From an uncultured Actinomycetes bacterium (GTDB lineage Bacteria; Actinomycetota; Thermoleophilia; Gaiellales; F1-60-MAGs149): 64,000 nucleotides of DNA. Positions within the stretch are counted from its first letter, which is position 1; the number at the start of each line of letters is the position of its first letter. Position numbers and translations under genes: made by a program. The notes beneath the pieces are model-generated. The model worked only from the letters and a program-made list of their open reading frames with translations, made no database searches and had not been told where the DNA came from. Positions 6,326 through 45,341 of the stretch are shown here, piece after piece. The stretch spans positions 1,025,673 to 1,089,672 of the forward strand of contig CAVZZG010000003.1 in the NCBI GenBank assembly GCA_963779685.1, written 5' to 3'.

Positions 6326-7702
6326 GTGCAGCCGATGCGGCACCATGACCGGGTGCCCGACACCTGGACCCCGACGAGCTGGCGCGAACGCCCGGCCCGC
6401 CAGCAGCCGGACTGGCCCGACGAGGCCGCGCTGGAGGCCGCCCTGGCCGAGGTCGCTGGCTTCCCGCCGCTGGTCTTCGCCGGGGAGGCGCGCGCGCTGA
6501 CGGCCGGGCTCGCCCAGGTCGCGTCGGGTCGCGCGTTCCTGTTGCAGGCCGGCGACTGCGCCGAGTCGTTCGACGCGTTCTCGGCCCCCAAGATCCGCGA
6601 GCAGTTGCGGGTGATCCTTCAGATGGCGGTGGTGCTGACCTACTCGAGTGGCGTGCCGACGGTGAAGGTCGGCCGCATCGCGGGTCAGTTCGGCAAGCCG
6701 CGATCCTCGTCCACCGAGCTGATCGGCGGCGTCGAGCTGCCCTCCTTCCGCGGGCACAACGTGAACGACCCGGCACCGACCGCCGAGGCCCGGACACCCG
6801 ACCCGCAGCGGCTCGTGCGCGCCTACCACCAGTCGGCCTCGACCCTCAACCTGCTGCGGGCCTTCACCAAGGGCGGCTTCGCCGACCTCTCGCGCGTGCA
6901 CGCCTGGACGCAGGAGTTCGTCTCCACCAGCCGCGAGGGGCGACGCTACGAGGCGCTGGCGGCCGAGATCGAGCGGGCGCTGCAGTTCATGCGCGCCTGC
7001 GGCATCGACACGCAGGCCACGCCGCAGCTGCACGAGACCGATCTCTACACCAGCCACGAGGCCCTCTTCCTCGGCTACGAGCAGGCCCTGAGCCGCGTCG
7101 ACTCCACCACCGGCGAGTGGTACGACTGCTCGGCGCACATGCTCTGGATCGGCGACCGCACCCGGCAGCTGGACGGCGCCCACGTCGAGTTCCTGCGCGG
7201 GGTCGGCAATCCGATCGGGGTCAAGCTCGGCCCGACGACCACCCCGGACGAGGCGCTGTCGCTCTGCGAGGCGCTCAACCCGGACCGGATCCCGGGACGG
7301 CTGACGCTGATCTCCCGGATGGGCGCCGACCACGTCGAGGGGCTGCTGCGCCCGATCCTGCGTGCCGTCACCGACGCCGGTCACCCGGTGGTGTGGTGCT
7401 GCGACCCCATGCACGGCAACACCTTCACGTCCGGCACCGGACGCAAGACGCGGCACTTCGACGACGCGCTGCAGGAGATCGGCGGGTTCTTCGACGCCCA
7501 TGCAGCGGAGGGCACGTGGCCCGGCGGCGTCCACGTCGAGCTCACCGGCGACGATGTCACGGAGTGCCTCGGCGGGGCCGAGGAGATCCTCGACCACCAG
7601 CTCGACGACCGCTACGAGACCGTCTGCGACCCCCGCCTGAACGGGCGGCAGTCGATCGACCTCGCCTTCCGCCTCGCCGAGCTCGTCCGCAGCGAGCCGT
7701 GA
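6326..7702 (+). CDS. 3-deoxy-7-phosphoheptulonate (DAHP) synthase, class II
   Basis: Contains SWRERPARQQPDWPD, AFLLQAGDCAESF, KVGRIAGQFGKPRS, WIGDRTRQ, VWCCDPMHGNT and GGVHVELTGDDVTEC. The start is ambiguous (GTG 6326 or ATG 6335). Confidence 0.93.
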   Translation: MQPMRHHDRVPDTWTPTSWRERPARQQPDWPDEAALEAALAEVAGFPPLVFAGEARALTAGLAQVASGRAFLLQAGDCAESFDAFSAPKIREQLRVILQMAVVLTYSSGVPTVKVGRIAGQFGKPRSSSTELIGGVELPSFRGHNVNDPAPTAEARTPDPQRLVRAYHQSASTLNLLRAFTKGGFADLSRVHAWTQEFVSTSREGRRYEALAAEIERALQFMRACGIDTQATPQLHETDLYTSHEALFLGYEQALSRVDSTTGEWYDCSAHMLWIGDRTRQLDGAHVEFLRGVGNPIGVKLGPTTTPDEALSLCEALNPDRIPGRLTLISRMGADHVEGLLRPILRAVTDAGHPVVWCCDPMHGNTFTSGTGRKTRHFDDALQEIGGFFDAHAAEGTWPGGVHVELTGDDVTECLGGAEEILDHQLDDRYETVCDPRLNGRQSIDLAFRLAELVRSEP

Positions 7703-8934
7703 GCGCGGCCCTCGACGCCCTCGATCGGCGCACCGACGAGCTGGTGGCGTTCACCGCCGACCTCGTGCGCCGTCCCAGCCCGAACCCGCCGGGCGACACG
7801 CGCGCCGTCGCCGATGCCGTCGCCGCGCGCCTCGCCGAGCACGGCATCGTGGTCGAGGAGATCTCCGACCAGGTGCACACGCCGAACCTCGTCGCCAGCG
7901 TCACGGGCGACCGGCCCGGCCCCCACCTCGTGCTGTGCGGCCACATGGACGTGTACCCGCCCGGCCCGGGACACGCCTGGTCGGGCGATCCGTGGCGCGG
8001 CGAGATCGCCGGCGGACGCCTCCACGGACGTGGCGCGGGCGACATGAAGAGCGGCCTGGCGACCCTCGTCGCGACGCTCCTCGCCCATGCCGAGACCCGG
8101 ACGTTCGGCGGCCGCCTGACGCTGCTGGCGGTCTCCGACGAGATGAGCTTCTCGCCGCACGGCGCACCGCTGGTGCTCGAGCGTCGGCCCGATCTGGTCG
8201 GCGACGCCGTGATCGGTGCCGAGCCGACATCGCCGGACTTCGTGCTCTTCGGGGAGAAGGGCATGGCCTGGATCGAGCTGGAGGCCGAGGGCGGCAGCGG
8301 CGCCGGCGCCTACGCGGTCGGCGTGCCGAACGCCATCGAGCGCCTGGCGGCGGCGCTCGGCGATCTGGCTGCATTGCGCGACTGGCAGATCCCGATGCCG
8401 GACGACGTCGTGCAGGCGCTTCGGTCAGGCGGTGGCACGGACGGCCTGCCGCCCGAGGCGCTCACCTACGCCGACGACCGCGTGCTGCCGCTGGTCACCG
8501 TGAATGCCGGTGTGATCGCCGGGGGCCGCAAGATCAACCTGGTCGCCGACGCCGCCCGCTGCGAGCTCGACCTGCGCCTCCCGCCGGGCGGCGCGCTCGC
8601 CGACCTCCACGACCGCCTGCGCGGCATCCTCATCCGCCATCCCGGCGTCACGTACCGCGTCATCCAGGAGATGGCGCCCAACTACACCGACCCCGCCGAT
8701 CCGCTGGTCGCAGGGCTGGTGACGGCCGGTGCGGCCGTGCGGGGCGTCGCCCCCCGCCCCGAGCTCGGCATCACGGCCTCCGACACCCGGCTCTGGCGGG
8801 CACGGGGCGTGCCGGCGGCCATGGTCGGCCCGCGCATCGCCGGGCAGGGCATGCCCGACGAGTCGATCGCCGTCGCCGACCTCGTGGACTGCGCGCGCAT
8901 CGTCACCCGCGCGACCGCCGACCTTCTCGGCTAG
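7699..8934 (+). CDS. M20 family metallopeptidase (ArgE/DapE/ACY1-like)
   Basis: GTG 7699 overlaps the DAHP synthase stop (GTGA). Contains LVLCGHMDVYPPG, GRGAGDMKSGLA, SDEMS and EPT. Track ORF 7117..8934 is over-extended upstream. Confidence 0.88.
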   Translation: MSAALDALDRRTDELVAFTADLVRRPSPNPPGDTRAVADAVAARLAEHGIVVEEISDQVHTPNLVASVTGDRPGPHLVLCGHMDVYPPGPGHAWSGDPWRGEIAGGRLHGRGAGDMKSGLATLVATLLAHAETRTFGGRLTLLAVSDEMSFSPHGAPLVLERRPDLVGDAVIGAEPTSPDFVLFGEKGMAWIELEAEGGSGAGAYAVGVPNAIERLAAALGDLAALRDWQIPMPDDVVQALRSGGGTDGLPPEALTYADDRVLPLVTVNAGVIAGGRKINLVADAARCELDLRLPPGGALADLHDRLRGILIRHPGVTYRVIQEMAPNYTDPADPLVAGLVTAGAAVRGVAPRPELGITASDTRLWRARGVPAAMVGPRIAGQGMPDESIAVADLVDCARIVTRATADLLG

Positions 8935-8941: not shown

Positions 8942-9208
8942 TCAGAGAACTTCCGCGCCGAGGCGGTCGCGGATCAGCGGCAGGACGTCCTCGGGGTCCG
9001 GGTAGCGCCCGAGCATCTTCTTGGTGAAGACCAGCTCACCGTCGATGTGGACGTCGAAGATGCCGCCGGTGCCCGGAACCACCTCGAGCCGCTCGAGCAC
9101 CGGGCCCCACCCGGCGAGGATGCGCGCGACCAGACCGGCCGCGTTCGGGGCCGCCCCTCAGGGGACGCAGTATTCGATCCTGATGGAGTACGTCGGATTG
9201 AGTACCAC
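8942..9208 (-). CDS. Rdx family (SelW/SelT-like) selenoprotein, 88 aa, with Sec encoded by in-frame TGA at 9158-9160
   Basis: Not in the ORF track. From GTG 9208: MVLNPTYSIRIEYCVP-U-GAAPNAAGLVARILAGWGPVLERLEVVPGTGGIFDVHIDGELVFTKKMLGRYPDPEDVLPLIRDRLGAEVL, with stop TGA at 8942-8944. The TGA sits at the second position of the family CxxC/CxxU motif. G/C third-position bias continues on both sides, and a SECIS-like hairpin lies 14 nt downstream. Confidence 0.8.
9125..9143 (-). promoter_or_regulatory. Putative bacterial SECIS hairpin (Sec recoding signal)
   Basis: Minus-strand RNA is CGCGGCC-GGUCU-GGUCGCG: a 7-bp stem (one G-U pair) and a 5-nt loop, starting 14 nt after the UGA. The apical GGUCUG is identical to the apex of the E. 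coli fdhF SECIS as I recall it. Confidence 0.6.
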
Positions 9209-9229
9209 GGCGCGAAGCGTAGACGCTGC

Positions 9230-9257
9230 GGGCGGAGCCGGTCACCCGGCCCCGCCC
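9230..9257 (-). terminator. GC-rich hairpin downstream of the giant repeat-protein gene (terminator-like, no U tract)
   Basis: GGGCGGAGCCGG-TCAC-CCGGCCCCGCCC has 12-nt arms. The single mismatch is A-C on the plus strand but G-U on the minus-strand RNA. It starts 18 nt after the stop at 9275. Confidence 0.35.
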
Positions 9258-9274: not shown

Positions 9275-12200
9275 TCACGAGGGCTGCGTCTTCGGCGCGG
9301 CGGCCGAGATGGCGTCGGTCGAGCCGGCCGCGTTGGCGGCGGTGACGACGCAGCGCAGGTAGAGGTCGATGTCGCCGGCGACGGCGTGGTACGAAGCTGA
9401 CGTCGCACCGACGATCGGCCCTGGCATGTTCCCCTGCGGCCCTGCTCCCGCGCCGGCGAGGCAACTCGAGAACGCGGTGTTGTTGAGACAGCGATACCAC
9501 TGGTAGGAGTAGGTGGTCGGGGTGTTCGACCAGGTGCCGTTGGTGATGCTGCCCGTGGTGCCCGCCGTGCCGGAGCGCGGCTTCCAGGTGGACGGCGAGA
9601 ACACCGGCAGCGTCAGGTTGACCGGCGGCGTGCCGCCGCCGCCTGCGGTCACCGTCCACGAGGCCGTCTGGCTCGCGGAGCCGCCGGTGTTCGTGACCGT
9701 GACGACGAAGGTGTGCGCGCCGACCGCGACGCCGGAGAGGTTCACCGGCGTGGTGCACGGGGTGTAGGCCACGCCGTCGTAGGTGCAGGTGGTGGACGAG
9801 ATGGTGCCGGTGGTCGTCCACGCGATCGTGGCCGTGGTTGCCGTCGTGGTCGGCGTCGGGGCCTGGCTGAGCGAGATCGTGGGCGGACTCACGGCCGCTG
9901 CCACCGACCAGGTGTAGCTCGCCGTCGCCGAGCCGCCCGAGTTCGCGACCGTGACCGAGAACGTGTGGGAACCGACCGCGAGGCTGGAGTAGCTCTGGCC
10001 GGAGGCGCAGGCCACGCCCGGAGCGGCGTCGAGCGAGCAGGTCGTGCTCGTCGGGGCGCCGCCGCCCGTCGTCCAGGCGAAGGTCGCCGTCGGCGGGGCA
10101 TTGGTGGCGACCGGCGTCGAGGTCAGGGTGACCGTCGGGGCGACCGCGACGACCGTCCAGGCAGCCGTGGCGGTGCCCGAGCCGGTGGCGTTGGTCGCCG
10201 TGATGACGTAGGTGTGGGCTCCCAGTGCGAGCCCGCTGAGGGACGCCGGGGAGGTGCATGCCACCGCGGTGCCGGCGTCGAGCTTGCAGGTGGTCGAGGT
10301 CGGGCTGTTGGTGGCCGTCCAGGCGATGGAGGCCGTGGTCGCGGTCACCGACCCGGTCGGGGCGCTGGTGATCGTGACGACCGGCGCCGGTGCCTGCACC
10401 GTCCACGGGGTCGTCGTGGCCGTGCCCGTGCCGGCGATGTTGGTGGCGGAGACCGTCACCGAGTGCGAGCCGACCGAGAGACCCGACACGCTGTACGGGC
10501 TGGTGCAGGCCGTGGCCGTGCCGCCGTCGAGCGAGCAGGTGACCGTGGTCGGGCTGTTGGTGGTGGTGAAGGCGACGGCGCCCGAGGTCGCGGTGCCCGT
10601 GGCGGGCTGCGACGTGATGGTGACGGTCGGGGTGCCGACGATCGTCCAGGCGGCCGTGGCCGAGCCGGTGCCGGTGGCGTTGGTGGCGGCGACGACCACC
10701 GTGTGGGCGCCGACGGCGAGGGCCGAGTAGGCCTTCGGCGAGGTGCACGCCGTCGCCGCGCCACCGTCGATCGCGCAGGTGGTGGAGGTCGGGCTGTTGG
10801 TGGCAGTCCAGGCGATGGAGGCGCTGGTCGTGGCCACGGAGCCCGACGGCGCCGAGGTGATCGTCACGACCGGGGCCCCGACCGCGGGCGGCTGCACCGT
10901 CCATGCGGTGGTGGTGGCCGAGCCGGTGCCCGCGATGTTGGTCGCGGCGACCGTGACCGAGTGCGAGCCGACGGAGAGCGACGACATACTGTACGGGCTG
11001 GTGCAGGCCGTGGCCGTGCCGCCGTCGAGCGAGCAGGTGACCGTGGTCGGGCTGTTCGTGGCCGTGAAGGCCACGGCGCCGGAGGTCGAGGTTCCGGTCG
11101 ACGGCTGCGAGGTGATGGTGACGACGGGAGCCGCGATGATCGTCCAGGCGGCGGTGGCCGAGCCGGAGCCGCCCGCGTTGGTGGCCGTCACGACCACCGA
11201 GTGGGAGCCCGCGGACAGGCTCGAGTACGCCTGCGGCGAGGTGCATGCCGTCGCGCTGCCGCCATCCAGGGCGCAGGTCGTCGAGGTCGGGCTGTTCGTC
11301 GCCGTCCAGGCGATGGAGGCGGTGGTCGCAGCCACCGTGCCCGTCGGCGCGCTGGTGATGGTGACGACCGGGGGCTGCGGCAGCACCGACCACGCGGTGG
11401 TCGAGGCCGAGCCGGTGCCACCGGAGTTCGACGCCGTCACGGTGACGGAGTGCGAGCCCACCGAGAGCGCCGACATGCTGTACGGGCTGGTGCACGCGGT
11501 GGCGGTGCCACCGTCGAGCGAGCAGGTCACGGTGGTCGGGCTGTTGGTCGCGGAGAACGCGACCGCGCCCGACGTGGACAGGCCGGTGGACGGCTGCGAG
11601 GTGATGGTGACGACCGGTGCCTGCACCGGTGCGACGACCGTCCAGGTGTAGGGCGTGACGGCTGCCAGGTCAGTCGTGTTCGAAACGTAGAGGCCGAACA
11701 CGTGCGGGGCCTGGGCGAGCCCGGAATAGGACTTCGTGTACGTACCGGCGGTGCCGCCGGGGGTCGCCGAGCAGGCCGCGTAGGCCGCGCCGTCGATCGA
11801 GCACATGATGTTCGTGGCCTCACCGACGATCGTGAACCCGAACGAGGCCGAGGTGGCCGTCGTGGTCGCACCCGGCGTCGAGGTCAGCTGGACGGTCACG
11901 GGATCGGTGATGGTCCACGCCAGGTCGGCGGGCGCCGACCAGCCGCGCACGTTCATGACCGCGACCCGGAAGATGTGCGATCCGGGATTCAGCGCGTTGG
12001 CGGTGTACGGCGGCGCGGTGCAGGGAACGTCGGTCGAGTCGAGGTAGCAGACGGTGTCGGTGCCGGGGACGTCGGTCGACCAGTCGAAGATGGCGGTGCG
12101 AGCGGTGGTCGTCGCAGGCGGAGCGGCGATGTAGGTCACGGTCGGCTTGACGGCCGCGACGGCCTTCACCAGCAGCACGATGTGATCGGCGATCCGGTTG

Positions 12201-13057
12201 GCGCCGCTGGTGTGGCTGTCGACGATGACGGTGTCGTCGCGGCCGATGGTGCCGAGGGCGGCCGTCGAGCCGACGACGAAGTCGACCGGGTTGCTCCCGA
12301 CCTGGCGTACCGAGATGTGCTGACCGCTGGCGGCGGTGACGACGCCCTGCACCTCGGACTTCTTGGAGTTGGCGAACTTGTCGCGGCCGGCCAGGAGGGC
12401 CCAGCGGACGGTCGTGAAGCTCGCGCTCGCGCCCGAGCCGCTGAGCGTGCTGTCGACCAGCACCGAGTCGCCGATCGCGACGGTCGAGAAGTCGACACCG
12501 CCGGGATCGACGCCGAGGTTGATGCCACCGGGGAGCCGAAGTGCGATACCGCTGCCACCGGCGGCCGAAACCACGCCGGCGATGCGGACGCTGCGCACGT
12601 TGGGGAGCGCGGTGGTGGTGACCATGGAGAGCTTCGTGGTGCTCACGGCGGCCAGGACGAGCTGCGTCGTACCGAGCACCGATGGCCGCGCGCCCAGCAC
12701 GCCGACGGCCGCGCCGCCGCTCGCGAGCACCTCGATGCCGCGATCGACCCCGATGACGGTGCCGCGCACCTTGACTCGCTTGACCCGGGTCGAGAAGGTC
12801 GCCTTGGTGGCGACGAAGACGCCGATGGCGTTCCAGGAGCCGGACACCTTGATGCGACGGCCGAAGACCTTGCCGGGCCGCTTCGCGAGGCGAACCCGCG
12901 CGAGCGTGCCGTTGGAGCGGGCGACCACGGCCGTGGTGGAGGACGGCTGCGCCACGACGACACCGACCACGGCGCTGGCCGACGAATGGGCGGGCACGGC
13001 AAGACCGAGCGACGCCACCGCCATCAAGCCCAATGCACGCAATCGAATTCGTCGCAC
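9275..13057 (-). CDS. Giant secreted repeat protein (about 1260 aa): N-terminal beta-domains, about 10 Cys-pair Ig-like repeats, C-terminal W-x-R-C module
   Basis: Track ORF 9275..13177. The likely start is GTG 13057 (VRRIRLRALGLMAVASLGLAVPAHSSASA, a signal peptide). Repeat consensus: VVTITS.P......A.IAWTATNSPT..TC.LDGG.A.ACTSP..YS.L..GSH.V.V.ATN..G.GSA. The tail has YSYQWYRC....C....IVGATSASY....GDIDLYLRCVVTAANAAGS. Confidence 0.85.
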   Translation of the reverse strand: MRRIRLRALGLMAVASLGLAVPAHSSASAVVGVVVAQPSSTTAVVARSNGTLARVRLAKRPGKVFGRRIKVSGSWNAIGVFVATKATFSTRVKRVKVRGTVIGVDRGIEVLASGGAAVGVLGARPSVLGTTQLVLAAVSTTKLSMVTTTALPNVRSVRIAGVVSAAGGSGIALRLPGGINLGVDPGGVDFSTVAIGDSVLVDSTLSGSGASASFTTVRWALLAGRDKFANSKKSEVQGVVTAASGQHISVRQVGSNPVDFVVGSTAALGTIGRDDTVIVDSHTSGANRIADHIVLLVKAVAAVKPTVTYIAAPPATTTARTAIFDWSTDVPGTDTVCYLDSTDVPCTAPPYTANALNPGSHIFRVAVMNVRGWSAPADLAWTITDPVTVQLTSTPGATTTATSASFGFTIVGEATNIMCSIDGAAYAACSATPGGTAGTYTKSYSGLAQAPHVFGLYVSNTTDLAAVTPYTWTVVAPVQAPVVTITSQPSTGLSTSGAVAFSATNSPTTVTCSLDGGTATACTSPYSMSALSVGSHSVTVTASNSGGTGSASTTAWSVLPQPPVVTITSAPTGTVAATTASIAWTATNSPTSTTCALDGGSATACTSPQAYSSLSAGSHSVVVTATNAGGSGSATAAWTIIAAPVVTITSQPSTGTSTSGAVAFTATNSPTTVTCSLDGGTATACTSPYSMSSLSVGSHSVTVAATNIAGTGSATTTAWTVQPPAVGAPVVTITSAPSGSVATTSASIAWTATNSPTSTTCAIDGGAATACTSPKAYSALAVGAHTVVVAATNATGTGSATAAWTIVGTPTVTITSQPATGTATSGAVAFTTTNSPTTVTCSLDGGTATACTSPYSVSGLSVGSHSVTVSATNIAGTGTATTTPWTVQAPAPVVTITSAPTGSVTATTASIAWTATNSPTSTTCKLDAGTAVACTSPASLSGLALGAHTYVITATNATGSGTATAAWTVVAVAPTVTLTSTPVATNAPPTATFAWTTGGGAPTSTTCSLDAAPGVACASGQSYSSLAVGSHTFSVTVANSGGSATASYTWSVAAAVSPPTISLSQAPTPTTTATTATIAWTTTGTISSTTCTYDGVAYTPCTTPVNLSGVAVGAHTFVVTVTNTGGSASQTASWTVTAGGGGTPPVNLTLPVFSPSTWKPRSGTAGTTGSITNGTWSNTPTTYSYQWYRCLNNTAFSSCLAGAGAGPQGNMPGPIVGATSASYHAVAGDIDLYLRCVVTAANAAGSTDAISAAAPKTQPS
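10136..11617 (-). repeat. Three tandem copies of a two-domain (A-B) coding repeat with 489/498-bp period
   Basis: An exact 68-nt direct repeat lies at 10491-10558 and 10989-11056 (ctgtacgggctggtgcaggccgtggccgtgccgccgtcgagcgagcaggtgaccgtggtcgggctgtt). A near-copy lies at about 11478. Protein repeats A1/A2/A3 begin at aa 521/684/850 of the track ORF. Confidence 0.9.
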
Positions 13058-13313
13058 CGTCGCATTCCCCCTGTTTGCCGATCCGGTCTGGCCCACGTCG
13101 GTCGCGATCCGTCCAATGGGCGAAACCGCAGACCTGGTCTGCCGGTTCTGATTGAGCAATCGGACGTCCACGTTCAACGCAACACCCCCATGACGGGTAG
13201 TCGCTGGCCTCGTTTCATCAGGTTCACTCAGCCTCGGCCCCTACGGCGATCCCCCGGACGGGGGGATCACGGCCGCGGCACGGTGCCCGCCCGGCCGTCG
13301 ATAATTCCGCTCC

Positions 13314-22599: not shown

Positions 22600-22788
22600 T
22601 CCTGGCAAACGCCGACGGCAGACGGGACACGGCAGCTTCGCCCGCCGCGGCTCCGAACCATGACGGCCGCAGTAGGCGAGTTGGCGGTCGCTCAACGGCC
22701 GCGATGCGCGGGTGGCGTTCGCTCGGAGGCCGCGAAGACGGGCCGCCCACCGCCGCGCGGGCCGTTGCCCGTGAGCGGGTTAGAGAGG

Positions 22789-22872
22789 TGCGGATGAGAG
22801 GACTTGAACCTCCACGCCCTTACGGGCACACGGACCTGAACCGTGCGCGTCTACCAATTCCGCCACATCCGC
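22789..22872 (-). tRNA. tRNA-Leu (anticodon CAG), class II with long variable arm
   Basis: Minus strand: GCGGATGTGGCGGAATTGGTAGACGCGCACGGTTCAGGTCCGTGTGCCCGTAAGGGCGTGGAGGTTCAAGTCCTCTCATCCGCA. Acceptor stem is GCGGATG/CATCCGC. The anticodon stem CACGG/CCGTG carries the loop TTCAGGT. The T-loop is TTCAAGT. CCA is not fully encoded. Confidence 0.93.
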
Positions 22873-22906: not shown

Positions 22907-24181
22907 TTAGCCGATGCGCGTCGCGATCGCCTCGAGGGCGTCGCAGAGCCGGTCGACCTCGTCCGTCGTCGTGTAGTGCAGGAAGCCGGCGCGGACGGCG
23001 CCGCCGCGGTCCTCGAGTCCGAGTGCGAGCATCACGTTCAGCGCGTAGTAGTTGCCATCCCAGACGAAGATGCCCGCGCGTCCGAGCTCCTCGGCGATGG
23101 CGCGTGGGTGGACGCCGTCGATCGTGATCGCGAAGGTGGGCGTGCGTTCGGCCACGCGGGCCGGATCCGCGATGCCGTGCAGGGCGAGCCCGGGGATGTC
23201 GGCCAGCCGGCCCATGGCCTGCCGGGAGAGGGCCTCCTCGTGGGCCGTGATGCGGGCGTAGGCGCTGTCGAGGCGCGCCCGTCGGGTGCCACCCTCGCCG
23301 AGCTCGGCGAGGTAGTCGACGGCCGCGACGAAGCCGGCCAGCGCCTCGTGGCTCTGCGTGCCGGTCTCGAACCGGTGCGCGGCCGGCGTCTCGGCGGCGG
23401 GCCGGACGCGATCGGCGGGCCAGTGCTGGGCGAGGTCGTGCCGGATCGCCGCCATGCCGAGGTGCGGCCCGAAGTACTTGTACGGCGAGCAGACGACGAC
23501 GTCGAGGCCCATGCCCCGGCGGTCGATGCGGCCGTGCGGGGCGTAGTGCACGGCATCTGCCCACGCCAGAGCGCCTACCCGATGCGCCGCGTCGGCGATC
23601 CGGCGGGCGTCGGGCTTCGAGCCGACCGCGTTCGAAGCCAGGGTGAAGGCGACCACCTTCGTGCGCTCCGACAGCAGCGACTCCAGCACGTCGACGTCGA
23701 GCGTCACGTCCGCCGACCGGATGGGGGCGGTGTGCACGGTGAGCTGGTGATCGTCGGCGACGCGCAGCCAGGGGCTGACGTTGCCGTCGTGATCGAGCTG
23801 CGTGACGACGATCTCGTCGCCCGGCTGCAGCGTCCTTGCGACGGCGTGGGCCAGCTGGAAGTTCAGCGTGGTCATGTTGGCCCCGAACGCGATCTCGTCC
23901 GGATCCGAGCCGGTGAAGTCGGCGCCGGCCTGGCGCGCACGGTCGTAGAGCGCGTCGGACTCCGCGCTGGTGACGAAGGCGCCGTCGAGGTTCGCGTTCG
24001 ACCCGCGCAGGTACGCGGTGATGGCGTCGATGACGGTATCCGGGGCCTGCGATCCTCCCGGACCGTCGAGGAAGGCGGCGGGCCTGCCCGCCACCTGGCG
24101 CTGCAGGGCGGGGAAGCGGCGCCGGAGCGCCGCGACGTCGAGCGGGGGCGTTTCGATCGCGGTCACGGCGGCAGCGTACAC
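22907..24181 (-). CDS. Cysteine desulfurase-like class V aminotransferase (PLP-dependent)
   Basis: 424 aa. Contains RRRFPAL, AFLDGPGGSQAP, VVTQLDHDGNVSPW, ADAVHYAPH and VCSPYKYFGPHLG (PLP Lys region). Confidence 0.85.
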   Translation of the reverse strand: MYAAAVTAIETPPLDVAALRRRFPALQRQVAGRPAAFLDGPGGSQAPDTVIDAITAYLRGSNANLDGAFVTSAESDALYDRARQAGADFTGSDPDEIAFGANMTTLNFQLAHAVARTLQPGDEIVVTQLDHDGNVSPWLRVADDHQLTVHTAPIRSADVTLDVDVLESLLSERTKVVAFTLASNAVGSKPDARRIADAAHRVGALAWADAVHYAPHGRIDRRGMGLDVVVCSPYKYFGPHLGMAAIRHDLAQHWPADRVRPAAETPAAHRFETGTQSHEALAGFVAAVDYLAELGEGGTRRARLDSAYARITAHEEALSRQAMGRLADIPGLALHGIADPARVAERTPTFAITIDGVHPRAIAEELGRAGIFVWDGNYYALNVMLALGLEDRGGAVRAGFLHYTTTDEVDRLCDALEAIATRIG

Positions 24182-26016: not shown

Positions 26017-26026
26017 CTTCCAGCCC

Positions 26027-28077
26027 ATGACCAGCGCGGCCGGTGGCACGCACCGGACGATGTGCCCGATGAACTGCCATCCGACCCTGTGCGGGATGCT
26101 GGTCGACGTCGACGGCTCTGGACGGGTTACGGTGCGCGGCGATCCCGACAACCCCGACAGCCGCGGCTTCCTCTGCGTCCGCGGCCAGGCCAGCCGCGAG
26201 ATCATCGGCAACCCGCTGCGGCTGTTGCAGCCTCGCATCCGGGAGGGCCGCGGCACCGACCGGTGGCGCGAGGCTGACTGGGATGAGGCGCTCGGGCTGA
26301 TCGCCGATCGGATGGGCGAGGTCGGGCCGGCCGCCGTCGGGCTGTGGGTGGGGCACGGCGCCATGGCGAACAACTACGGCACGCGGGTCTCGGCCCAGCT
26401 CGTCCGGCGGTTCGCGAACCTCCACGGCAGCCAGACCTGGAGCCCGACGAGCATCTGCTGGGGCCTCGGCGGGTTCGGCCTCGGCCTGACCGGCGTGCTC
26501 GAGGCGAACACCAAGGAGGACCTCGGCGACAACGCCGGGATGGTGATGATGTGGGGCGCGACGATCGCGAGCCAGCCGAACACCGCGCGGCACCTGGTGC
26601 GGGCGCGCAAACGGGGCGCCTTCGTCGTCACCATCGACGTGCGCGAGACCGAGGCGACCGCGCGCTCCGACGAGATGATCCTGATCCGCCCCGGCACCGA
26701 CGCGGCGCTCGCGCTCGGCCTGATGCACGTCATCGTCCGCGACGGTCTCCACGACCGCGAGTTCGTGGCCGCGCACACGGTCGGGTTCGAGGAGCTGCGC
26801 GCGCACCTCGTCGGTCACTCGCCCGAGTGGGCGGAGGCGGCCTGCGGCGTCCCCGCCGCCACGATCGAGGCGCTGGCGCGCCGCTACGCGACCACCCGCC
26901 CGGCGATGATCGTGCTCGGCGGCAGCTCGATGCACAAGGGCGCGGCCGGCTGGGAAGGCGGCCCGGGCGATCGGCTGCCTGCCGGCGCTGACGGGCAACG
27001 TCGGCATACCCGGCGGCGGGTTCGGCCCGCGTCACGGCGCGCACAGCCACGGCCAGGCGCTGACCGACATCGCAGCAGCCGGGCGACGGCCGCCCGGCGA
27101 CTGGGTGCCGAACCAGATGGAGCGGATCACGGAGGCGCTGCTCGCCCGCCGGGTGCGCGCGATGCTCCTGTTCGGCACCAACATGGTCTCGTCGTTCGCG
27201 GACGCCCGGCAGGTCATGGAGGGGCTCCGCCGGACCGACCTCGTGGTCGCCCACGACCTCTTCATGTCGGAGACGGCGCGCACGTTCGCCGACGTCGTGC
27301 TCCCGGCGACGTCGTGGCTCGAGGAGACGGGCTGCAAGAGCACGAACACCCACCTGTACCTGATGCCGCAGGTGCTCGACCCGCCGGGCGAGACGCGGTC
27401 CGTCGCCCGCGTGCTGCGCGACCTCGCCGACCGTCGCGGCCTCGTCGACTTCTGGCCCTGGGAGGACGATGCCGGGGCCCTGAACGCGATCCTCGACCAC
27501 CCCTCGACCGGTCACGCCACGACGGCGGCGCTCGCGGCCGAAGGCGGTATCCGGGCGCTCGAGATCTCCCACGTGGCTCACCCGGAGCTCGAGTTCCCGA
27601 CGCCGTCCGGCAAGATCGAGTTCCTCTCCGAACGCGCCGTCGAGCTCGGGTTGCCGGCGCTGCCGGTGCACACCCCGCAGGCGCCGACCACCGTTGCCGC
27701 TGACGCTGCGCAGCGGGCGCACGCTCACCCACTTCCACGGCTTCTACGACCACGGGCGGGCACTGCCGTCGCTCGCCAGGGCCGACCCCGAGCCCGTGGT
27801 GTGGATCTCGCCGGCGGACGCCGTCCCGCGTGGCGTCGACGACGGCGCCCCGGTGAGGATCCACAACGAGCGCGGCGAGCGCCACGCCCGCGCGCTCGTC
27901 ACCGACAAGGTGCCCGCGGGCGTCGTCTGGATGCGCTCCGGCTGGGCCGGCACCAACACCCTCACGTCGGGCCGATCCTGCCTTCCCGACGCGGCCGTCG
28001 ACCTGTTCTCGTTCTCCGCCGGCCAGGCCGCCTTCGACGCAGACGTCGAGGTGGAGGCCGCACCGGAGGCCCCATAG
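26027..28077 (+). pseudogene. Molybdopterin (MopB-family) oxidoreductase split into three frames (breaks near 26957-26962 and 27684-27694)
   Basis: Segment 1: MCPMNCHPTLCGM...FLCVRG (4Fe-4S motif)...SSMHKGAAGWEG. Segment 2, next frame: ARAIGCLPALTGNVGIPGGGFGPRHG...LLFGTNMVSS...GKIEF...LPVHTPQAP. Segment 3, third frame: PLTLRSGRTLTHFHGFYDHG...PVRIHNERGE...VWMRSGW. Confidence 0.8.
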
Positions 28078-28144
28078 GCGTCCGGCGGTGGGAGTAACGT
28101 CCGGCGGTGACGGCCATCCGATTCCCCGCCGAAGGAGCACGTCC

Positions 28145-28516
28145 ATGAACGGCGTCTACTGGTTGATCTACATCGCGGTGATCGTGCTGGTGATCGCCGG
28201 GTTCTGGCAGGTGTTCACCAAGGCCGGCGAGGAGGGCTGGAAGAGCATCATCCCGGTCTACAACACCATCGTCGAGCTCAAGATCGTGGGCCGTCCGTGG
28301 TGGTGGCTGCTGCTCCTGTTCATCCCGTTCGTGGGCTTGATCATCTACATCATCGTGATGAACGACCTGGCGAAGAGCTTCGGCAAGGGAGCCGGCTTCA
28401 CGGTCGGACTGGTCCTGCTGCCGTTCGTCTTCGTCGTGATCCTGGGTTTCGGCGCGGCGACGTACGTCGGGCCGGGCGGCGTGGCGCCGAGCGGCACCCA
28501 GGTCCAGTCCTGGTAA
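28145..28516 (+). CDS. DUF5684-like small membrane protein
   Basis: ATG 28145 is preceded by AAGGAG. Sequence runs MNGVYWLIYIAVIVLVIAGFWQVFTKAGEEGWKSIIPVYNTIVELKIVGRPWWWLLLLFIPFVGLIIYIIV...GLVLLPFVF. GC is visibly lower than the surroundings. Confidence 0.7.
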   Translation: MNGVYWLIYIAVIVLVIAGFWQVFTKAGEEGWKSIIPVYNTIVELKIVGRPWWWLLLLFIPFVGLIIYIIVMNDLAKSFGKGAGFTVGLVLLPFVFVVILGFGAATYVGPGGVAPSGTQVQSW

Positions 28517-37999: not shown

Positions 38000-38661
38000 C
38001 GGTTGCCGAGCAGGGCCATGAAGTAGGCGAGCTGGGCGATGGCTGCGAGTGCACCGGCGACGTACGTCATGGCCGCGGCCGTCAGCACGTTGCGCGAGCC
38101 CTCGGCGACCTGCGGGTTGGCGAAGAAGCCGAGCGCCTGGAGCTGCTTCCGGGCGCGGGCCGACGCGTTGAGCTCGATCGGCAGGGTGACGATCTGGAAC
38201 AGCACCGCCACCGAATACAGCGCCACGCCGACCGCGACCAGCCCCGTCGCGTGCAGGATGAACCCGCCGAACACGAGCGGCATGAACAGGTTCGAGACCA
38301 GGCCCACCGGGCGCGCGAGCGCGGTGCGCGCCCTGAAGAGCGCCATGCCCTTCGCGTGCTGGATGGCGTGGCCGACCTCGTGGGCGGAAACGGAGACGGC
38401 GGCCACTGAGCGTGAGTTCGCGACGTCGGCCGACAGCCGGATCACGCGATCGCGCGGGTCGTAGTGGTCGGACAGCTGGCCGGGGACGACCTCGATCGGG
38501 ACGCTCGAGAGGCCGTTGGCGTCGAGGATCTGGCGGGCGACGTGGGCACCGGTGTCGAAGCCCGAGTCGACCTGGCTCCAGCGGGAGAACGAGCGCTTCA
38601 CCCACGACTGCGCCGCCAGCCCGATCAGGAGCGGAATGACGAAGTAGTAGAGGTAATTCAT
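37996..38661 (-). CDS. Membrane zinc metallopeptidase (YugP/PF04298-like)
   Basis: 221 aa. Contains SDHYDPRDRVIRLS, AAVSVSAHEVGHAIQH (HExxH) and C-terminal TM helices. The ATG overlaps the upstream stop (ATGA). Confidence 0.82.
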   Translation of the reverse strand: MNYLYYFVIPLLIGLAAQSWVKRSFSRWSQVDSGFDTGAHVARQILDANGLSSVPIEVVPGQLSDHYDPRDRVIRLSADVANSRSVAAVSVSAHEVGHAIQHAKGMALFRARTALARPVGLVSNLFMPLVFGGFILHATGLVAVGVALYSVAVLFQIVTLPIELNASARARKQLQALGFFANPQVAEGSRNVLTAAAMTYVAGALAAIAQLAYFMALLGNR

Positions 38662-40727
38662 ACCTGCATGGTCGCACGAATAACGCGCGCATCAAGTGCC
38701 GTGACGCCCTCGGCGGTGGCACGGAGCGGGTTGACCTCCACCTCCGCGATGTCGGGCCGGCCGCACAGCAGATCGCCGACGGCGACGGCGACCCGGGCGA
38801 TGCCGTCGACGTCCACCGCCGCCGCCCCCCGCACGCCGGCCAGCAGCGGCCAGCAGCGCAGCTCGCGCAGGAGTCCGGCGACGTGGGACGGGTGCACGGG
38901 GGCCAGGGCGACGGCGACATCGTCGAGCACCTCGACGAAGATGCCGCCGGCTCCCACCAGCACCACGGGCCCGAAGCACGGGTCGCGGCGCGCGCCGACC
39001 ACGAGATCGACTCCGGGCCCGCTCATGGCCTCCACCCAGATGCCGTCCAGCGATCGTGCCAGTCGTTCTCGCATCTCCTCGGCCGCGGCCACGGCTTGCA
39101 GCGGCGTCGCCAGCCCGAGCACGACGCCCCCGGCCTCGGTCTTGTGGATGAGCTCCGGCGACACCGCCTTCAGCGCCACCGGCCCGCCGATCCGGGAGGC
39201 GATCGCGGCCACGTCGTCCTCGTCGGCGGCCAGCCCGCCCTCCGGGAACTCGACGCCCATCTCCTGCAGCAGGGCGCGCGCCTCCGGGTACGTGGCCCGC
39301 TCGAGCGGGGTCGCGGGTGCGGTCCCGGCCGCGCGAGCGGGCGCCGGCGGATGCGGCACGAGCGCCAGCATGGCATCGACGGCACGCTCGACATGCTCGA
39401 ACGCCGGCACGCGCAGGCGCCGGAGCTCGGCGATGGCGGGCATCCCGGCGATCACCTGCATCGACTGCACGATCACCGGCTTCGCCGATGCGTCGCGGAG
39501 CGCTGCGATGCGGCCGGCGACGTCGAGCTCGATCCGCCCCATCTCCTCTGTGTAGCCCGCGTAGCCGCCGAAGTAGCCGGTGTACAGCACGGCGTCGATA
39601 CCCGGATCGTCGATCAGGGCGGCGCCGATGCGCTCGAACACCTCGACGTCCTCCTCGGCCATGCCCGCCAGGTCGATCGGGTTGACCGGCTGGGAGTTGC
39701 GCAGCTCGGGGCGGATCCGCTCCGCCGTCTCCGCCGCCAGCGGCACCACCTCGAACCCCGCGTCTACGAGCAGATCGGCCGCCACGACCCCGTGCCCGCC
39801 GCCGTCGGCGACCACCGCCACCGAGCGCCGCGCGATGCGGCCCCCGCCCAGCAGGGCGCACGCGCGATCGACGATCTCGCCGGGCGATCGCACGAGGATG
39901 CCGCCGCCGTCCCGCACCGCCGCCGCGAACACCCGCGAGGAGCCTGCGAGCGACCCCGTGTGCGACAGCGCCGCGCGGGCGCCGATCTCCGACCGGCCCG
40001 CCTTGAGGACGAGCGCGGGCTTGCCGGCATCGCTGAGGCGCCGCAGCGCGGCGACGAACGCGTCGCCGTCGCCCGGGTCCTCCACGTAGGCAGCGGCGAC
40101 CATGGTGGCCTCGTGGTCGGCGAAGCTCGCGAGCACGTCGGCGACGCCGATGTCGGCCTGGTTCCCCACCGACACCAGGCGCGCGAAGCCGAGGCCGACG
40201 TGCTCGAGCTGCATCCCGATCTCGAGCGCCAGGTTGCCGCTCTGGCTGGCCAGCGAGAAGGGCCCGCGGGGCGCACGGGCGCCGCCGGAGGCGTTCAGCC
40301 CGCTGCCGGTGTCGATCAGGCCGAGGCAGTTGGGGCCGAGCAGGACCGCGCCCGCCTCCCGTACCTGCGCCGCCATCCGCCGCTCGATCTCGAGCCCCTC
40401 CTCGCCGCCCTCGCCGAATCCCGCCGCTATCACGACGATCGCCCGCGCCCCGACCGCGAGGGCGTCGGAGACGGACTGCGCGGCGGCGGCGGCGGGCACC
40501 GCCACCAGTACCAGCTCGGGCGCGACCGGCAGCTCCTCGAGCGAGGTGTAGGCGGTCTGCCCGTGGAGCTCGCCGCCGCGCCGGTTGATCAGGAAGATGT
40601 CGGGCCGGCGCTCCTCGGCGAGCAGCCCGATGGCCATCCAACCCCCCCACTTCGCCCGGTCCTCGGAGGCGCCCACGAGGGCCACGGTCCGCGGTGCGAA
40701 GAGGGGCTGGAGATCGCGCTCCGTCAC
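38658..40727 (-). CDS. ADP-forming acyl-CoA synthetase (acetate--CoA ligase family; CoA-binding plus ATP-grasp)
   Basis: GTG 40727 overlaps the ACAD stop (GTGA). Contains LFAPRTVALVGASED, LLGPNCLGLI, SQSGNL, SVGNQADI, SHTGSLAGS and PVALKAVSPELIHKTEAGGV. Confidence 0.85.
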   Translation of the reverse strand: MTERDLQPLFAPRTVALVGASEDRAKWGGWMAIGLLAEERRPDIFLINRRGGELHGQTAYTSLEELPVAPELVLVAVPAAAAAQSVSDALAVGARAIVVIAAGFGEGGEEGLEIERRMAAQVREAGAVLLGPNCLGLIDTGSGLNASGGARAPRGPFSLASQSGNLALEIGMQLEHVGLGFARLVSVGNQADIGVADVLASFADHEATMVAAAYVEDPGDGDAFVAALRRLSDAGKPALVLKAGRSEIGARAALSHTGSLAGSSRVFAAAVRDGGGILVRSPGEIVDRACALLGGGRIARRSVAVVADGGGHGVVAADLLVDAGFEVVPLAAETAERIRPELRNSQPVNPIDLAGMAEEDVEVFERIGAALIDDPGIDAVLYTGYFGGYAGYTEEMGRIELDVAGRIAALRDASAKPVIVQSMQVIAGMPAIAELRRLRVPAFEHVERAVDAMLALVPHPPAPARAAGTAPATPLERATYPEARALLQEMGVEFPEGGLAADEDDVAAIASRIGGPVALKAVSPELIHKTEAGGVVLGLATPLQAVAAAEEMRERLARSLDGIWVEAMSGPGVDLVVGARRDPCFGPVVLVGAGGIFVEVLDDVAVALAPVHPSHVAGLLRELRCWPLLAGVRGAAAVDVDGIARVAVAVGDLLCGRPDIAEVEVNPLRATAEGVTALDARVIRATMQV

Positions 40728-41902
40728 GGGCCGACCATCCGCTCGACGCCGCGCCGCTCGAGCCCCCGGGCCACGATCAGGCGCTGGATCTCGCTCGTCC
40801 CCTCCCAGATCCGGTCGACGCGGAGCTCGCGCCAGAGCCGCTCGGCGGCGGTGGTGCGCATGTAACCGCGACCGCCGTAGGCCTGGACGCAGCGGTCGGC
40901 GAGGCGGTTGGCGGCCTCCGAGCAGAACAACTTGGCCATCGCCGCCTTGCCATGGGCGAGCTTCGGGTCGGTGCCCTCGTCGATCAGCTGGGCGACGTTG
41001 TAGGTGAGCAGCCGCCCGGCCAGGCAGTCGGCGGCGGAGTCGGCCAGCGGGAAGCTGATGCCCTGGTGGTCGTAGATCCGCTGACCGCCCTGGACGCGGT
41101 CGATCGACCAGCCGACCGTATCGACCAGCAGGCGGCGCATGGCACCGACGCAACGGGCGGCGATGTGGATGCGCTCCTCGACGAACCACATGTTCTGCAG
41201 CTCGTTGCCACGACCGATCATGCCGGGCCCGCCGAGCACCTGCGATTCGGGCACCTCGCAGTCGAACAGGATCGTGGGATGGCCGTGCGGGTAGTTGTGG
41301 GTGAACGGCGGGTCATCGAGGAACGTGATGCCCGGGGTCGAGCGGTCGACCAGGAAGAGCGTGGGCAGGCGGTCGTCCCCGTCGAGGACGTTCACCATCA
41401 CGATGTAGAAGTCGGCGGCGTCACCGGTGGTGACGAACCACTTCTCGGTCTGGATGCGGAAGCCGCCGCCGGTCCGCACCGCAGTGCCGGCGATGCCCGA
41501 GGCGTCGGATCCGGCGTCGCGTTCCGTGACGGCGTACGCGTCGGCCCGCTCACCCCGCAGCGCGGGCTTGAGGTAGGTCTCGACCTGCTCGGGCGTGCCG
41601 AGTGCGAGCACGTTGTAGGCCCCGGCGGAGTTCCACGAGATGGCGTTGGTGTGGCGCCCGAGCTCCTCGTGGACGATGCACTGCTCGAGCATCGTCCAGC
41701 CCTGGCCGCCGACGTCGACGGCGTGGTTGCCACCGACCATCCCGAGCTCCACGGCGGTCTGCATGACGTGGCGGCGGTCGGCTTCCGGCAGCCGGCCGAG
41801 GGCGCGCTCGGCCTTCTCCTCGAGCGGTATCAGCACCTCGTCCACCCAGCGGGCGGCACGGGTTCGCAGCTCTGACTGGGCGGGTGTGAGCGCGAAGTCC
41901 AT
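40724..41902 (-). CDS. Acyl-CoA dehydrogenase
   Basis: 392 aa from ATG 41902: MDFALTPAQSELR. Further motifs are AYAVTERDAGSDASG, QAYGGRGY and RIWEGTSEIQ. Confidence 0.9.
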   Translation of the reverse strand: MDFALTPAQSELRTRAARWVDEVLIPLEEKAERALGRLPEADRRHVMQTAVELGMVGGNHAVDVGGQGWTMLEQCIVHEELGRHTNAISWNSAGAYNVLALGTPEQVETYLKPALRGERADAYAVTERDAGSDASGIAGTAVRTGGGFRIQTEKWFVTTGDAADFYIVMVNVLDGDDRLPTLFLVDRSTPGITFLDDPPFTHNYPHGHPTILFDCEVPESQVLGGPGMIGRGNELQNMWFVEERIHIAARCVGAMRRLLVDTVGWSIDRVQGGQRIYDHQGISFPLADSAADCLAGRLLTYNVAQLIDEGTDPKLAHGKAAMAKLFCSEAANRLADRCVQAYGGRGYMRTTAAERLWRELRVDRIWEGTSEIQRLIVARGLERRGVERMVGP

Positions 41903-42738
41903 CAGGCCGCCCCGTGCCCGAGGGTGCCGAGCACCTCGCCGTAGCGCTCGTCGCGCCAGGCCAGCGCGGCCTTCAGGCCGGCGGTGCGCACGAGGTCGTC
42001 GAAGGCGTTCTGCTCGGGCGTGCCGGCGCCGTTGAGGATCGCCGACAGGTCGAGGTTGGCCTCGACCGCCTCGGCGAGTCCCATGCACAGGTACGCGCGG
42101 TTGAGGGCGATCTTGGTCAGCTTCAGCACCGCCAGCGGCGTCGGCGCGATCCGCGCCACGAGCTTCGAGACCTCGGCATCGATCTCGTCGGCGGGGATCA
42201 CGCGGTTGACGAGGCCGATCCGGAGCGCCTCGTCGGCATCGACGGTGTCGCCCGTGAAGAGCAGCTCGCGGGTCTTGCGCTGGCCGAGCACGAACGGCAT
42301 CAGCAGCGCCACGGGCCCCGAGCCGTACCTGATCTCCGGCTCGCCGAAGCGCGCGTCGGGCGTGCAGACGAGTAGGTCGGCGGCCATCGCCACCTCCAGC
42401 CCTCCGGCGATGCACCAGCCCTGGGCGATGCAGATCGTCGGCTTCTCCAGCCGCCACAGCTTCATGGTCATGTCCACGTCGGCCGCCAGCTCGTCGCGCC
42501 ATGCGGGAACGCTCGAGATCGCCGCCGAGGCCTCCTCGGAGAGGTCGTAGCCCGCCGAGAACGCCCGCCCGTTCGCCCGCAGCACGACCACCCGGACCTC
42601 GTCGTCGGCGGCCGCGCGGTCGAAGCACGCCGACAGGGCATCGCGCAGTTCGTGGCTGATGGCATTCAGCTTGTCGGGCCGGTTCAGCGTGATCCACGCC
42701 GAGGGGCCGCGGATCTCGTAGAGCACGGAGTCGGTCAC
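41902..42738 (-). CDS. Enoyl-CoA hydratase/isomerase (crotonase family)
   Basis: 278 aa. Contains ITLNRPDKLNAIS, VVVLRANGRAFSAGYDL, AQGWCIAGGLEVAMAADL and FGEPEIRYG. Confidence 0.9.
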   Translation of the reverse strand: MTDSVLYEIRGPSAWITLNRPDKLNAISHELRDALSACFDRAAADDEVRVVVLRANGRAFSAGYDLSEEASAAISSVPAWRDELAADVDMTMKLWRLEKPTICIAQGWCIAGGLEVAMAADLLVCTPDARFGEPEIRYGSGPVALLMPFVLGQRKTRELLFTGDTVDADEALRIGLVNRVIPADEIDAEVSKLVARIAPTPLAVLKLTKIALNRAYLCMGLAEAVEANLDLSAILNGAGTPEQNAFDDLVRTAGLKAALAWRDERYGEVLGTLGHGAA

Positions 42739-44750: not shown

Positions 44751-45331
44751 CAGCGCGTGACCTCGAGCCCCAGTTCGTTCGCCACGGACTCGCGGATCAT
44801 GACGGCGGCCGCGGCGTTGTCGATCATCTGCACGAGGATCTGCATCCCCAGTCCGTCGACGATCGCGGCGAGGCGCCGCGCGACGACGTCGGGGGCGGCG
44901 ACGGCGATGCCGCGCTCGGCCGCGACCTCCTGCAGGGCGTCGCCGATCTGGACGATCCAGTCGGCGTAGGAGGCCTTCAGGGTCTCGCGGAGCCGCTCGT
45001 CGAAGACCGCCTGATTCCACATCTGGTGCCAGAGGATGGCGTTCTCCACCGCCACGTCCTCCTCGAGCACGTAGAACGCCAGCAGCGCCGTCAGCCGGCC
45101 GACGGCGTCGGTGGCGGCGGCCATGTGCGCCGCGACGCGTTCATCGGCGCGCTCGTCGGCGTACCGGAACGTCTGGTCGAGCAGGTCGGCGCGGGTCGCG
45201 AAGTAGTAGTGGACCAGCGCGGTCGAGACGCCTGCCTCGCGCGCGACGTCGCTCATCCGAAGTCGTTCGGCACCCTGACTCGAGATCACGCGGCACGCGG
45301 CCTCGAGGAGAGCCACCATCCGATCGCTCAC
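44750..45331 (-). CDS. TetR/AcrR family transcriptional regulator
   Basis: HTH region is RLRMSDVAREAGVSTALVHYYFATRADLL. Starts at GTG 45331 (alternatives ATG 45319 or ATG 45367). The palindrome 45342-45361 favours the shorter forms. Confidence 0.88.
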   Translation of the reverse strand: MSDRMVALLEAACRVISSQGAERLRMSDVAREAGVSTALVHYYFATRADLLDQTFRYADERADERVAAHMAAATDAVGRLTALLAFYVLEEDVAVENAILWHQMWNQAVFDERLRETLKASYADWIVQIGDALQEVAAERGIAVAAPDVVARRLAAIVDGLGMQILVQMIDNAAAAVMIRESVANELGLEVTR

Positions 45332-45341
45332 CGCACCTCCA

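Follow-up and report, generated by a model that had tools for sequence, protein, structure and literature searches.

Introduction

Bacterial SelW-like selenoproteins, in which selenocysteine (Sec, U) takes the second redox position of a CxxU motif, have been known since the mid-2000s. Zhang et al. (2006) listed ten members of this bacterial family and found few or no Cys homologues in Sec-using bacteria, which suggests that the original form was the one with Sec (PMC1794560). The CxxU family is therefore already established, since it is catalogued in that study and the profile TIGR02174 itself bears the name CXXU_selWTH. In this study, we analyzed a gene at positions 8942-9208, minus strand, of a 64,000-nucleotide stretch of contig CAVZZG010000003.1 from an uncultured Actinomycetes bacterium; this whole 64-kb stretch is called the window below. 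The original prediction, made by a model that saw only the sequence, had placed here an unannotated Rdx/SelW-like selenoprotein gene with an in-frame TGA in a CxxU motif. The gene is an additional, systematically mis-annotated member of the bacterial SelW-like family, and we put the probability that it is a functional Sec-encoding Rdx gene at about 0.9.

Results

An Rdx reading frame with an in-frame TGA

The gene comprises 88 codons. It starts with GTG (9206-9208), the window having no other in-frame start before the TGA, and has the putative Sec codon, TGA, at codon 17 (9158-9160). Read from 9208 to 8942 on the minus strand, it translates to VVLNPTYSIRIEYCVP-stop-GAAPNAAGLVARILAGWGPVLERLEVVPGTGGIFDVHIDGELVFTKKMLGRYPDPEDVLPLIRDRLGAEVL-stop, the first stop being the in-frame TGA; written from the start codon, the same translation is V-VLNPTYSIRIEYCVP-stop-GAAPNAAGLVARILAGWGPVLERLEVVPGTGGIFDVHIDGELVFTKKMLGRYPDPEDVLPLIRDRLGAEVL-stop. 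The coordinates and the peptide given in the original prediction (GTG 9208-9206, in-frame TGA 9160-9158, terminal TGA stop 8944-8942) are thus all reproduced by translation. The sole open reading frame (ORF) called mechanically in this frame is a 52-residue piece at 8942-9100, so the gene is hidden by the ORF length cutoff, and the ORF track misses it as had been claimed. The same holds for the claim of G/C-rich third codon positions on both sides of the TGA. The G+C content at third positions (GC3) is 0.81 over the 16 codons before the TGA and 0.93 over the 71 codons after it, and at second positions (GC2) it is 0.38 and 0.44, respectively. This pattern is the coding signature of the window, whose overall GC content is 72.4%.

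With the TGA translated as Cys, the product matches the Pfam family Rdx (PF10262) with 61.0 bits (E = 1.3e-16, cutoff 22.6) over profile positions 2-74 of 74, and TIGR02174 with 45.2 bits against a cutoff of 34.2. The Rdx membership that had been proposed therefore stands above the curated thresholds of both models. The Campylobacter-type equivalog NF041051 (SelTWH_Campy) gives 61.9 bits, below its cutoff of 88, so the product is related to that group and not a member of it. The part after the TGA alone scores 39.5 bits against PF10262, and the N-terminal 16 residues together with the Cys add 21.5 bits. Because the score falls in this way without them, the 16 residues upstream of the TGA represent real homology.

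A phmmer search of the PDB matched the solved bacterial SelW-related proteins 3DEX, 2FA8, 2OJL, 2OKA, 2OBK and 2P0G (E = 1e-13 to 4e-5) and also MIEN1; mouse SelW was not retrieved by this sequence search. The query IEYCVP[TGA] aligns column by column with IEYCTQC of 3DEX and IRYCTQC of 2FA8. Cys14 (9167-9169) opens the C-V-P-U redox motif, and its TGC codon occurs without exception in 21 of 21 orthologues. It lines up with the first CxxC Cys of the solved Cys-type homologues, and the TGA with the second. The alignment thus places the TGA at the second redox position, where it had been predicted, and not elsewhere.

The structure was modeled on a proxy, P0003, a natural TGT variant from the same clade with 70% identity. 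The AlphaFold model of P0003 has a pLDDT (predicted local distance difference test score) of 88.3 and shows a b1-loop(CxxC)-a1-b2-b3-b4-a2 topology, in which the redox motif is located in the loop between E5-11 and H18-32. The 21 best PDB matches to this model are all bacterial SelW-related proteins with template modeling (TM) scores of about 0.8, the best being 2OKA, 2FA8, 3DEX and 2OBK at 0.80-0.82; MIEN1, thioredoxins and mouse SelW are among the lower-ranked matches. Judged on this proxy, the window protein is predicted to have a thioredoxin-like beta1-alpha1-beta2-beta3-beta4-alpha2 fold. The order of elements in the model is also the one read from the sequence at the outset, namely beta1, CxxU, helix and PGxGGxFxV.

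Conservation of the TGA among orthologues

A single scan of the genome collection and one of the metagenome collection together gave 22 loci, 21 of which span the TGA site; L023 and L027-L030 were added through a look-up of truncated database proteins. All orthologous loci obtained by DNA search or through truncated protein entries have TGA at this codon, among them L001-L020, L022, L023, L027 and L029; they amount to 22 of 22 other lineages, with 39-75% identity. The lineages belong to three phyla and are mostly Gaiellales/Thermoleophilia-type metagenome-assembled genomes, with one Promineifilaceae (Chloroflexota) and one Methylomirabilota. A sequencing or assembly error could also make a TGA from TGC or TGT, and a double-frameshifted molybdopterin oxidoreductase gene in the window may mark an error-prone assembly. 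Finding TGA at the same codon in 22 other lineages, which were assembled independently in different projects and with different technologies, reduces the probability of such an error to a negligible level.

The peptide (I/V)RIEYCVP, encoded by the eight codons that precede the TGA, is conserved in the orthologues. These pre-TGA codons vary mostly synonymously, with Arg encoded by CGC, CGG, CGA or AGG, Glu by GAA or GAG, Val by GTC or GTT, and Pro by CCC or CCT. Because the codon changes there are mostly synonymous, the segment upstream of the TGA is translated in this frame. The orthologues begin 13-16 codons before the TGA, or 10 codons in the case of the divergent Methylomirabilota copy, and 14 of 21 use ATG; in-frame starts downstream of the TGA are scattered and unconserved until an internal Met at +48. 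Close relatives do not carry an ordinary truncated fragment at this place, which the original prediction had named as a possible refutation; the fetched loci keep the start, the upstream peptide and the TGA. Homologues with Cys, both the solved Cys-type Rdx proteins and rare TGC and TGT variants inside the clade, align this Cys with the UGA.

A conserved hairpin downstream of the UGA

A hairpin of the bacterial selenocysteine insertion sequence (SECIS) type is located inside the coding sequence at 9125-9143, minus strand. Its sequence is CGCGGCC-GGUCU-GGUCGCG, with a 7-bp stem formed by 9143-9137 and 9131-9125 and the loop GGUCU at 9136-9132, and it begins 14 nt after the UGA. A downstream hairpin with an apex like that of Escherichia coli fdhF had been predicted; it is present with the GGUCU pentamer, 3 nt further from the UGA than in fdhF.

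The stem is conserved as a paired structure. Across 20 aligned sequences, 96.4% of the stem cells are paired; displacing the 3' arm by 1-3 columns lowers this share to 26-64%. Double-sided changes occur at three of the seven pairs: the outer pair (C-G/G-C/U-A), pair 4 (C-G/G-C) and pair 5 (G-C/A-U/U-A). The covariation score is 0.334, compared with 0.164 for shuffled alignments, and none of 500 shuffles reaches the observed value. RNAalifold independently recovers the stem. The copy in the window has all seven stem pairs, including a lineage-specific compensatory flip from C-G to G-C. In addition, non-synonymous changes are coupled across the stem, with Ala to Thr (GCC to ACC) in the 5' arm and Ala to Val (GCG to GTG) in the 3' arm yielding an A-U pair.

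Codon choice in and around the loop is restricted as well. The orthologues have GGUCU, AGUCU or AGGCU as the loop, apart from the divergent Methylomirabilota copy with AGUUU. Where the loop encodes Gly, 15 of 15 sequences use GGT, a codon that makes up 8% of the Gly codons of the window, and Ser at the loop position, where present, is AGT in 4 of 4. Leu in the loop region is encoded by CTG in 20 of 21 sequences and never by CTC, which accounts for 43% of the window's Leu codons. Codon +7 ends in C in 21 of 21. On comparative grounds, these frozen wobble positions and the coupled replacements indicate selection on the RNA.

Work from the Bock and Engelberg-Kulka laboratories is said to have identified G23 and U24 in the fdhF loop as the contacts of SelB. 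Bacterial SECIS loops at about 16-37 nt from the UGA are reportedly accepted by the bSECISearch model of Zhang and Gladyshev. By analogy, the geometry of the window hairpin appears to fit this range of distances.

Public annotation and sense-codon variants

The near relatives in the protein database are mostly 59-67 residues long and start at assorted positions after the TGA. "Rdx family protein" fragments without the active site, such as WP_348174956.1, are present in RefSeq/GenBank. These 59-67-residue entries are gene-caller artefacts, and the claim that standard gene callers would miss the gene is borne out by them.

Taken at face value, such annotations would suggest that the locus makes two products, a 16-residue peptide that ends at a true TGA stop and a truncated Rdx fragment of 52-67 residues from an internal start; in the window, there is an in-frame GTG 20 codons after the TGA. 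However, the internal starts are not conserved among the orthologues (+3, +9, +10, +11, +13, +20, +23 and so on), no Shine-Dalgarno motif precedes them, and the arrangement looks leaderless. The upstream segment is homologous to Rdx beta1 and the first Cys and contributes the 21.5 bits mentioned above, and a fragment without it would lack the central beta1 strand and the entire redox motif. We therefore regard two separate products as very unlikely.

A few full-length entries of the clade (P0001-P0007 and P0009) carry G, R, C or W at the Sec site, and each of these sense codons is one base away from TGA. The variants that we fetched (L024:1501-1752, L025:344-595 and L026:10001-10249) have TGC, TGT and CGA, and their hairpins are intact with 6-7 of 7 pairs. 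Because the hairpins remain intact, the sense-codon variants are recent changes or read errors, and they do not form an established Cys lineage. For the same reason, they were uninformative as a Sec-to-Cys control for hairpin decay. The protein database is thus biased: it holds full-length sequences only for the rare variants or errors, and the normal Sec form is truncated.

Genetic code and selenocysteine machinery

TGA terminates 17 of the 27 Pfam-supported genes of the window, the Rdx gene included. Since TGA is a normal stop here, the TGA inside the Rdx gene is a case of local recoding. Alternatively, a standard amino acid might be inserted at the UGA: Trp or Gly if the codon has been reassigned, or Cys, Trp or Arg by efficient near-cognate read-through. 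Reassignment of UGA to Trp is reported in some Actinomycetota, in which the genomes are small, the GC content is 31-40% and UGA stops are avoided (PMC13462651), and rare database relatives of the Rdx gene have TGG, TGC/TGT, CGA or GGA at this codon. A reassigned code is marked by UGA not serving as a stop, low GC content and a reduced genome. None of these was found here: besides TGA being the majority stop (17/27), the window has 72.4% GC and the source contig is 2.47 Mb long. A conserved hairpin with a SelB-type loop has no part in simple read-through, and Trp, Gly or Arg would be inactive at the catalytic second Cys position. The relatives with a sense codon are singletons with an intact hairpin. 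Decoding as a standard amino acid is therefore highly improbable.

Several observations weigh against a functional Sec-encoding gene. Neither the 64-kb window nor about 300 kb of related loci yielded selA, selB, selD or a tRNA-Sec; for the genes, the window and the loci were translated in six frames and searched with motif regular expressions for SelD, SelA and SelB, and a Pfam scan covered 30 window ORFs. ARAGORN likewise found no tRNA-Sec in the window or the fetched loci. A scan of the window for in-frame TGA codons with coding periodicity on both sides gave only gene junctions and no second selenoprotein. The frameshifted oxidoreductase elsewhere in the window means that the assembly may hold errors. 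As for the hairpin, its folding energy is no better than that of shuffled sequences at 72% GC (z = 0.48, 0.02), it overlaps the conserved codons N-A-A-G-L-A/V-A, so that its conservation is partly at the protein level, and it has no relevant Rfam match at gathering or permissive thresholds. Rfam SECIS models are reported to miss bacterial SECIS elements. Because the folding energy is unexceptional in such GC-rich sequence, the significance of the hairpin comes from the comparison of orthologues, not from thermodynamics.

If the organism had lost its Sec machinery, the gene would be a relic or pseudogene, in which the TGA stops translation after 16 residues and no Rdx domain is made. The lack of sel genes and tRNA-Sec in the window, the apparent frameshifts in another window gene, and the patchy distribution and frequent loss of Sec traits (PMC1794560) would agree with such a loss. 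A relic would be expected to decay or to convert its TGA to TGC. The gene instead retains a conserved start position, an unbroken frame, 7 of 7 stem pairs including the compensatory flip, GGUCU with the rare GGT, and a GC3 of 0.93 downstream of the TGA. We consider a relic improbable, and the conserved UGA and SECIS, which are the standard in-silico criterion, suggest that the source organism is Sec-competent. A complete Sec machinery is reported from a different actinobacterial class (bioRxiv 10.64898/2026.04.03.716425).

Two candidates that came up in these searches were set aside. ARAGORN reported a 96-nt "tRNA-Gly(GCC)" of tRNA-Sec-like length at L020:437-532 (minus strand); it has no Rfam tRNA match, resembles GC-rich coding DNA and is probably a false positive. 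A possible TGA-split fdhA at 26-28 kb is not a selenoprotein gene: it encodes a molybdopterin oxidoreductase of the Cys type and has two apparent frameshifts. Coding in this gene (26025-28400, plus strand) passes through three frames in turn: the N-terminal Fe4S4 part (MCPMNCHPTLCG...) shares the frame of 25952, the middle part follows that of 25950 from about 27000 on, and from about 27990 the C-terminal part follows that of 25951. It has Cys (SPTSICWG) at the Sec position of FdhA and is either a pseudogene or the product of assembly indel errors.

The sole tRNA of the window, tRNA-Leu(CAG) at 22787-22872 (minus strand), lies directly downstream of a class-V aminotransferase (22907-24181, minus strand) with a cysteine desulfurase/selenocysteine lyase-type fold. 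No sign was found that ties this aminotransferase to selenium metabolism.

Transcription and genomic context

A -10-like hexamer, TACGCT (9216-9221, minus strand), ends 7 nt before the GTG and is the putative promoter element of a leaderless transcript. Most orthologues have TANNNT or a near variant equally far from the start (TACGCT, TACGAT, TATACT, TAGCAT, xAGAAT and TTGAAT). In almost all Rdx genes of the clade, as seen at 9209-9221 of the window and in the upstream regions of L001-L023, such a hexamer ends 6-8 nt before the start. There is no Shine-Dalgarno motif before the GTG, and almost all orthologues likewise lack one. A strict sigma-70 consensus scan found nothing upstream of the Rdx gene. 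These sequence features suggest that the Rdx mRNA is probably leaderless, with the GTG at its 5' end. If this holds across the clade, the UGA and the SECIS would lie within about 85 nt of the 5' end.

A 12-bp GC-rich hairpin, GGGCGGGGCCGG-GUGA-CCGGCUCCGCCC (9230-9257, minus strand), is located between the stop of the upstream gene and the Rdx promoter. It has no T tract and is absent from the list produced by the consensus terminator scan. From its position and sequence, it is probably the terminator of the upstream gene. Since it would terminate that gene, the Rdx gene may form its own transcription unit. The upstream gene, on the same strand (9275-13177), encodes a secreted protein of about 1,300 residues made of Ig-like repeats, and the convergent downstream gene encodes an M20 peptidase (about 7690-8934). 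No gene neighborhood is shared among the window, L023, L024, L026 and L027, and because the neighborhoods differ, the gene context offers no clue to function.

Taxonomic signals within the window differ. The nearest named relatives of the Rdx gene (61-75%) are Gaiellales and Thermoleophilia, and those of the DAHP synthase gene at 6326-7702 (plus strand; 75-79%) are Acidimicrobiales and Ilumatobacteraceae. Such a mismatch would arise from sparse naming or from movement of the small Rdx gene between actinobacterial classes; the gene also occurs in Chloroflexota and Methylomirabilota.

The upstream neighbor is one of several very large secreted repeat proteins rich in Thr, Ser and Ala (9275-13177, minus strand; 55502-58279, plus strand; 47619-49646, minus strand). 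They consist of tandem repeats of about 90 residues with a conserved Cys pair in each, e.g. VVTITSxPxG...TCxLDGGxAxACTSP...GSHxVxVxATN; the repeats are Ig-like, with a Big_7 match for 47619-49646. Their composition yields very long overlapping shadow ORFs on the opposite strand. Elsewhere in the window, an enoyl-CoA hydratase gene is flanked by two paralogous genes for ADP-forming acyl-CoA synthetase-like proteins (38658-41189, 41902-42738 and 42735-45020, all on the minus strand), and the paralogues combine CoA_binding_2, Succ_CoA_lig and ATP-grasp_5 domains. One synthetase-like gene is overlapped at its end by an opposite-strand Orn/Lys/Arg decarboxylase ORF as called (44333-46813), whose true start is probably further downstream.

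Discussion

Our data suggest that the gene is intact and expressed, and that its 88-residue product is a thioredoxin-fold oxidoreductase belonging to the Rdx (SelT/SelW/SelH) family, with the active site Cys14-Val-Pro-Sec17. The mRNA would start at the GTG or 1-2 bases off, as a leaderless message. According to established bacterial Sec decoding, from which the recoding steps are taken, the ribosome would meet the UGA at codon 17, and the hairpin 14 nt downstream would offer its GGUCU loop to SelB carrying Sec-tRNA(Sec). SelB would then place selenocysteine in the A site in competition with RF2, and translation would run to the TGA at 8944-8942. From the fold and the position of the motif, the product may alternate between a selenolate/thiol form and a Cys14-Sec17 selenenylsulfide, possibly acting as a small thiol-dependent reductase or antioxidant. 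If the leaderless arrangement is true, SelB-dependent recoding must work on ribosomes that initiated as 70S particles on a leaderless message.

The gene also bears on how such proteins are recorded. Recognizing the Sec form corrects a recurrent database error, in which hundreds of relatives are stored as fragments of 59-67 residues without the active site. In addition, it implies that Sec decoding is maintained in the source organism and in a broad set of uncultured soil Actinomycetota. The searchable literature holds no mention of Sec use in Thermoleophilia/Gaiellales-type classes. The C-V-P-U clade might mark undocumented, apparently obligate Sec use in abundant aerobic high-GC soil Actinomycetota (Gaiellales/Thermoleophilia-type and relatives), with a leaderless mRNA, a UGA after 16 codons, a SECIS about 65 nt from the 5' end, and public annotations that are all truncated artefacts; we offer this broader view tentatively and rate its chances at slightly less than even. 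The locus is further a clean case in which a bacterial SECIS shapes the codons used within an ORF, through the frozen GGT and the coupled Ala to Thr and Ala to Val changes, and could serve as a benchmark for selenoprotein predictors. The Rdx gene opens no new mechanism or family.

Like the SECIS of E. coli fdhF, whose sequence we checked against annotated E. coli genomes, the window hairpin lies inside the ORF directly 3' of the UGA. The two share an identical apical GGUCU, which each reading frame translates as Gly-Leu (GGU CUG). The hairpins differ in three respects. The loop G-U is at nucleotides 26-27 counted from the U of the UGA in the window gene and at 23-24 in fdhF, a difference of one codon. 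The upper stem is a continuous 7-bp helix here, whereas that of fdhF has a bulged U17. The loop has 5 nt and a C-G closing pair here, in contrast to 4 nt and an A-U closing pair in fdhF.

Among Rdx proteins, mammalian SelW (2NPB) and MIEN1 (2LJK) share the thioredoxin-like Rdx fold and a CxxU or CxxC motif after beta1, but they are distant, with TM scores of 0.62-0.65 and 23-30% identity. Eukaryotic SelW also differs in its recoding signal, a SECIS in the 3' untranslated region bound by SBP2, whereas the bacterial signal is a hairpin in the coding region bound by SelB. The Cys-type bacterial proteins, namely SAV_2001 of Streptomyces avermitilis (3DEX), Atu0228 (2FA8), 2OJL, 2OKA, 2OBK and 2P0G, are closer. 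They have the same fold (TM 0.80-0.82, 20-41% identity), keep the PGTGG-F-V motif and carry the redox motif at the same place. Unlike the window protein, they read Y-C-T-Q-C followed by a conserved Trp, are about 100-108 residues long, have Cys for Sec and lack a recoding signal.

The bacterial SelW-like selenoproteins (PMC1794560) are like the window gene in domain, in a length of about 80-90 residues, in the CxxU motif in the beta1-alpha1 loop, and in a UGA that is followed at once by a stem-loop in the coding region. Both groups are almost exclusively of the Sec form, with few Cys forms. In contrast to those members, the clade of the window gene has the motif C-V-P-U, belongs mainly to uncultured high-GC soil Actinomycetota with outliers in Chloroflexota and Methylomirabilota, and is found in public records only as truncated fragments.

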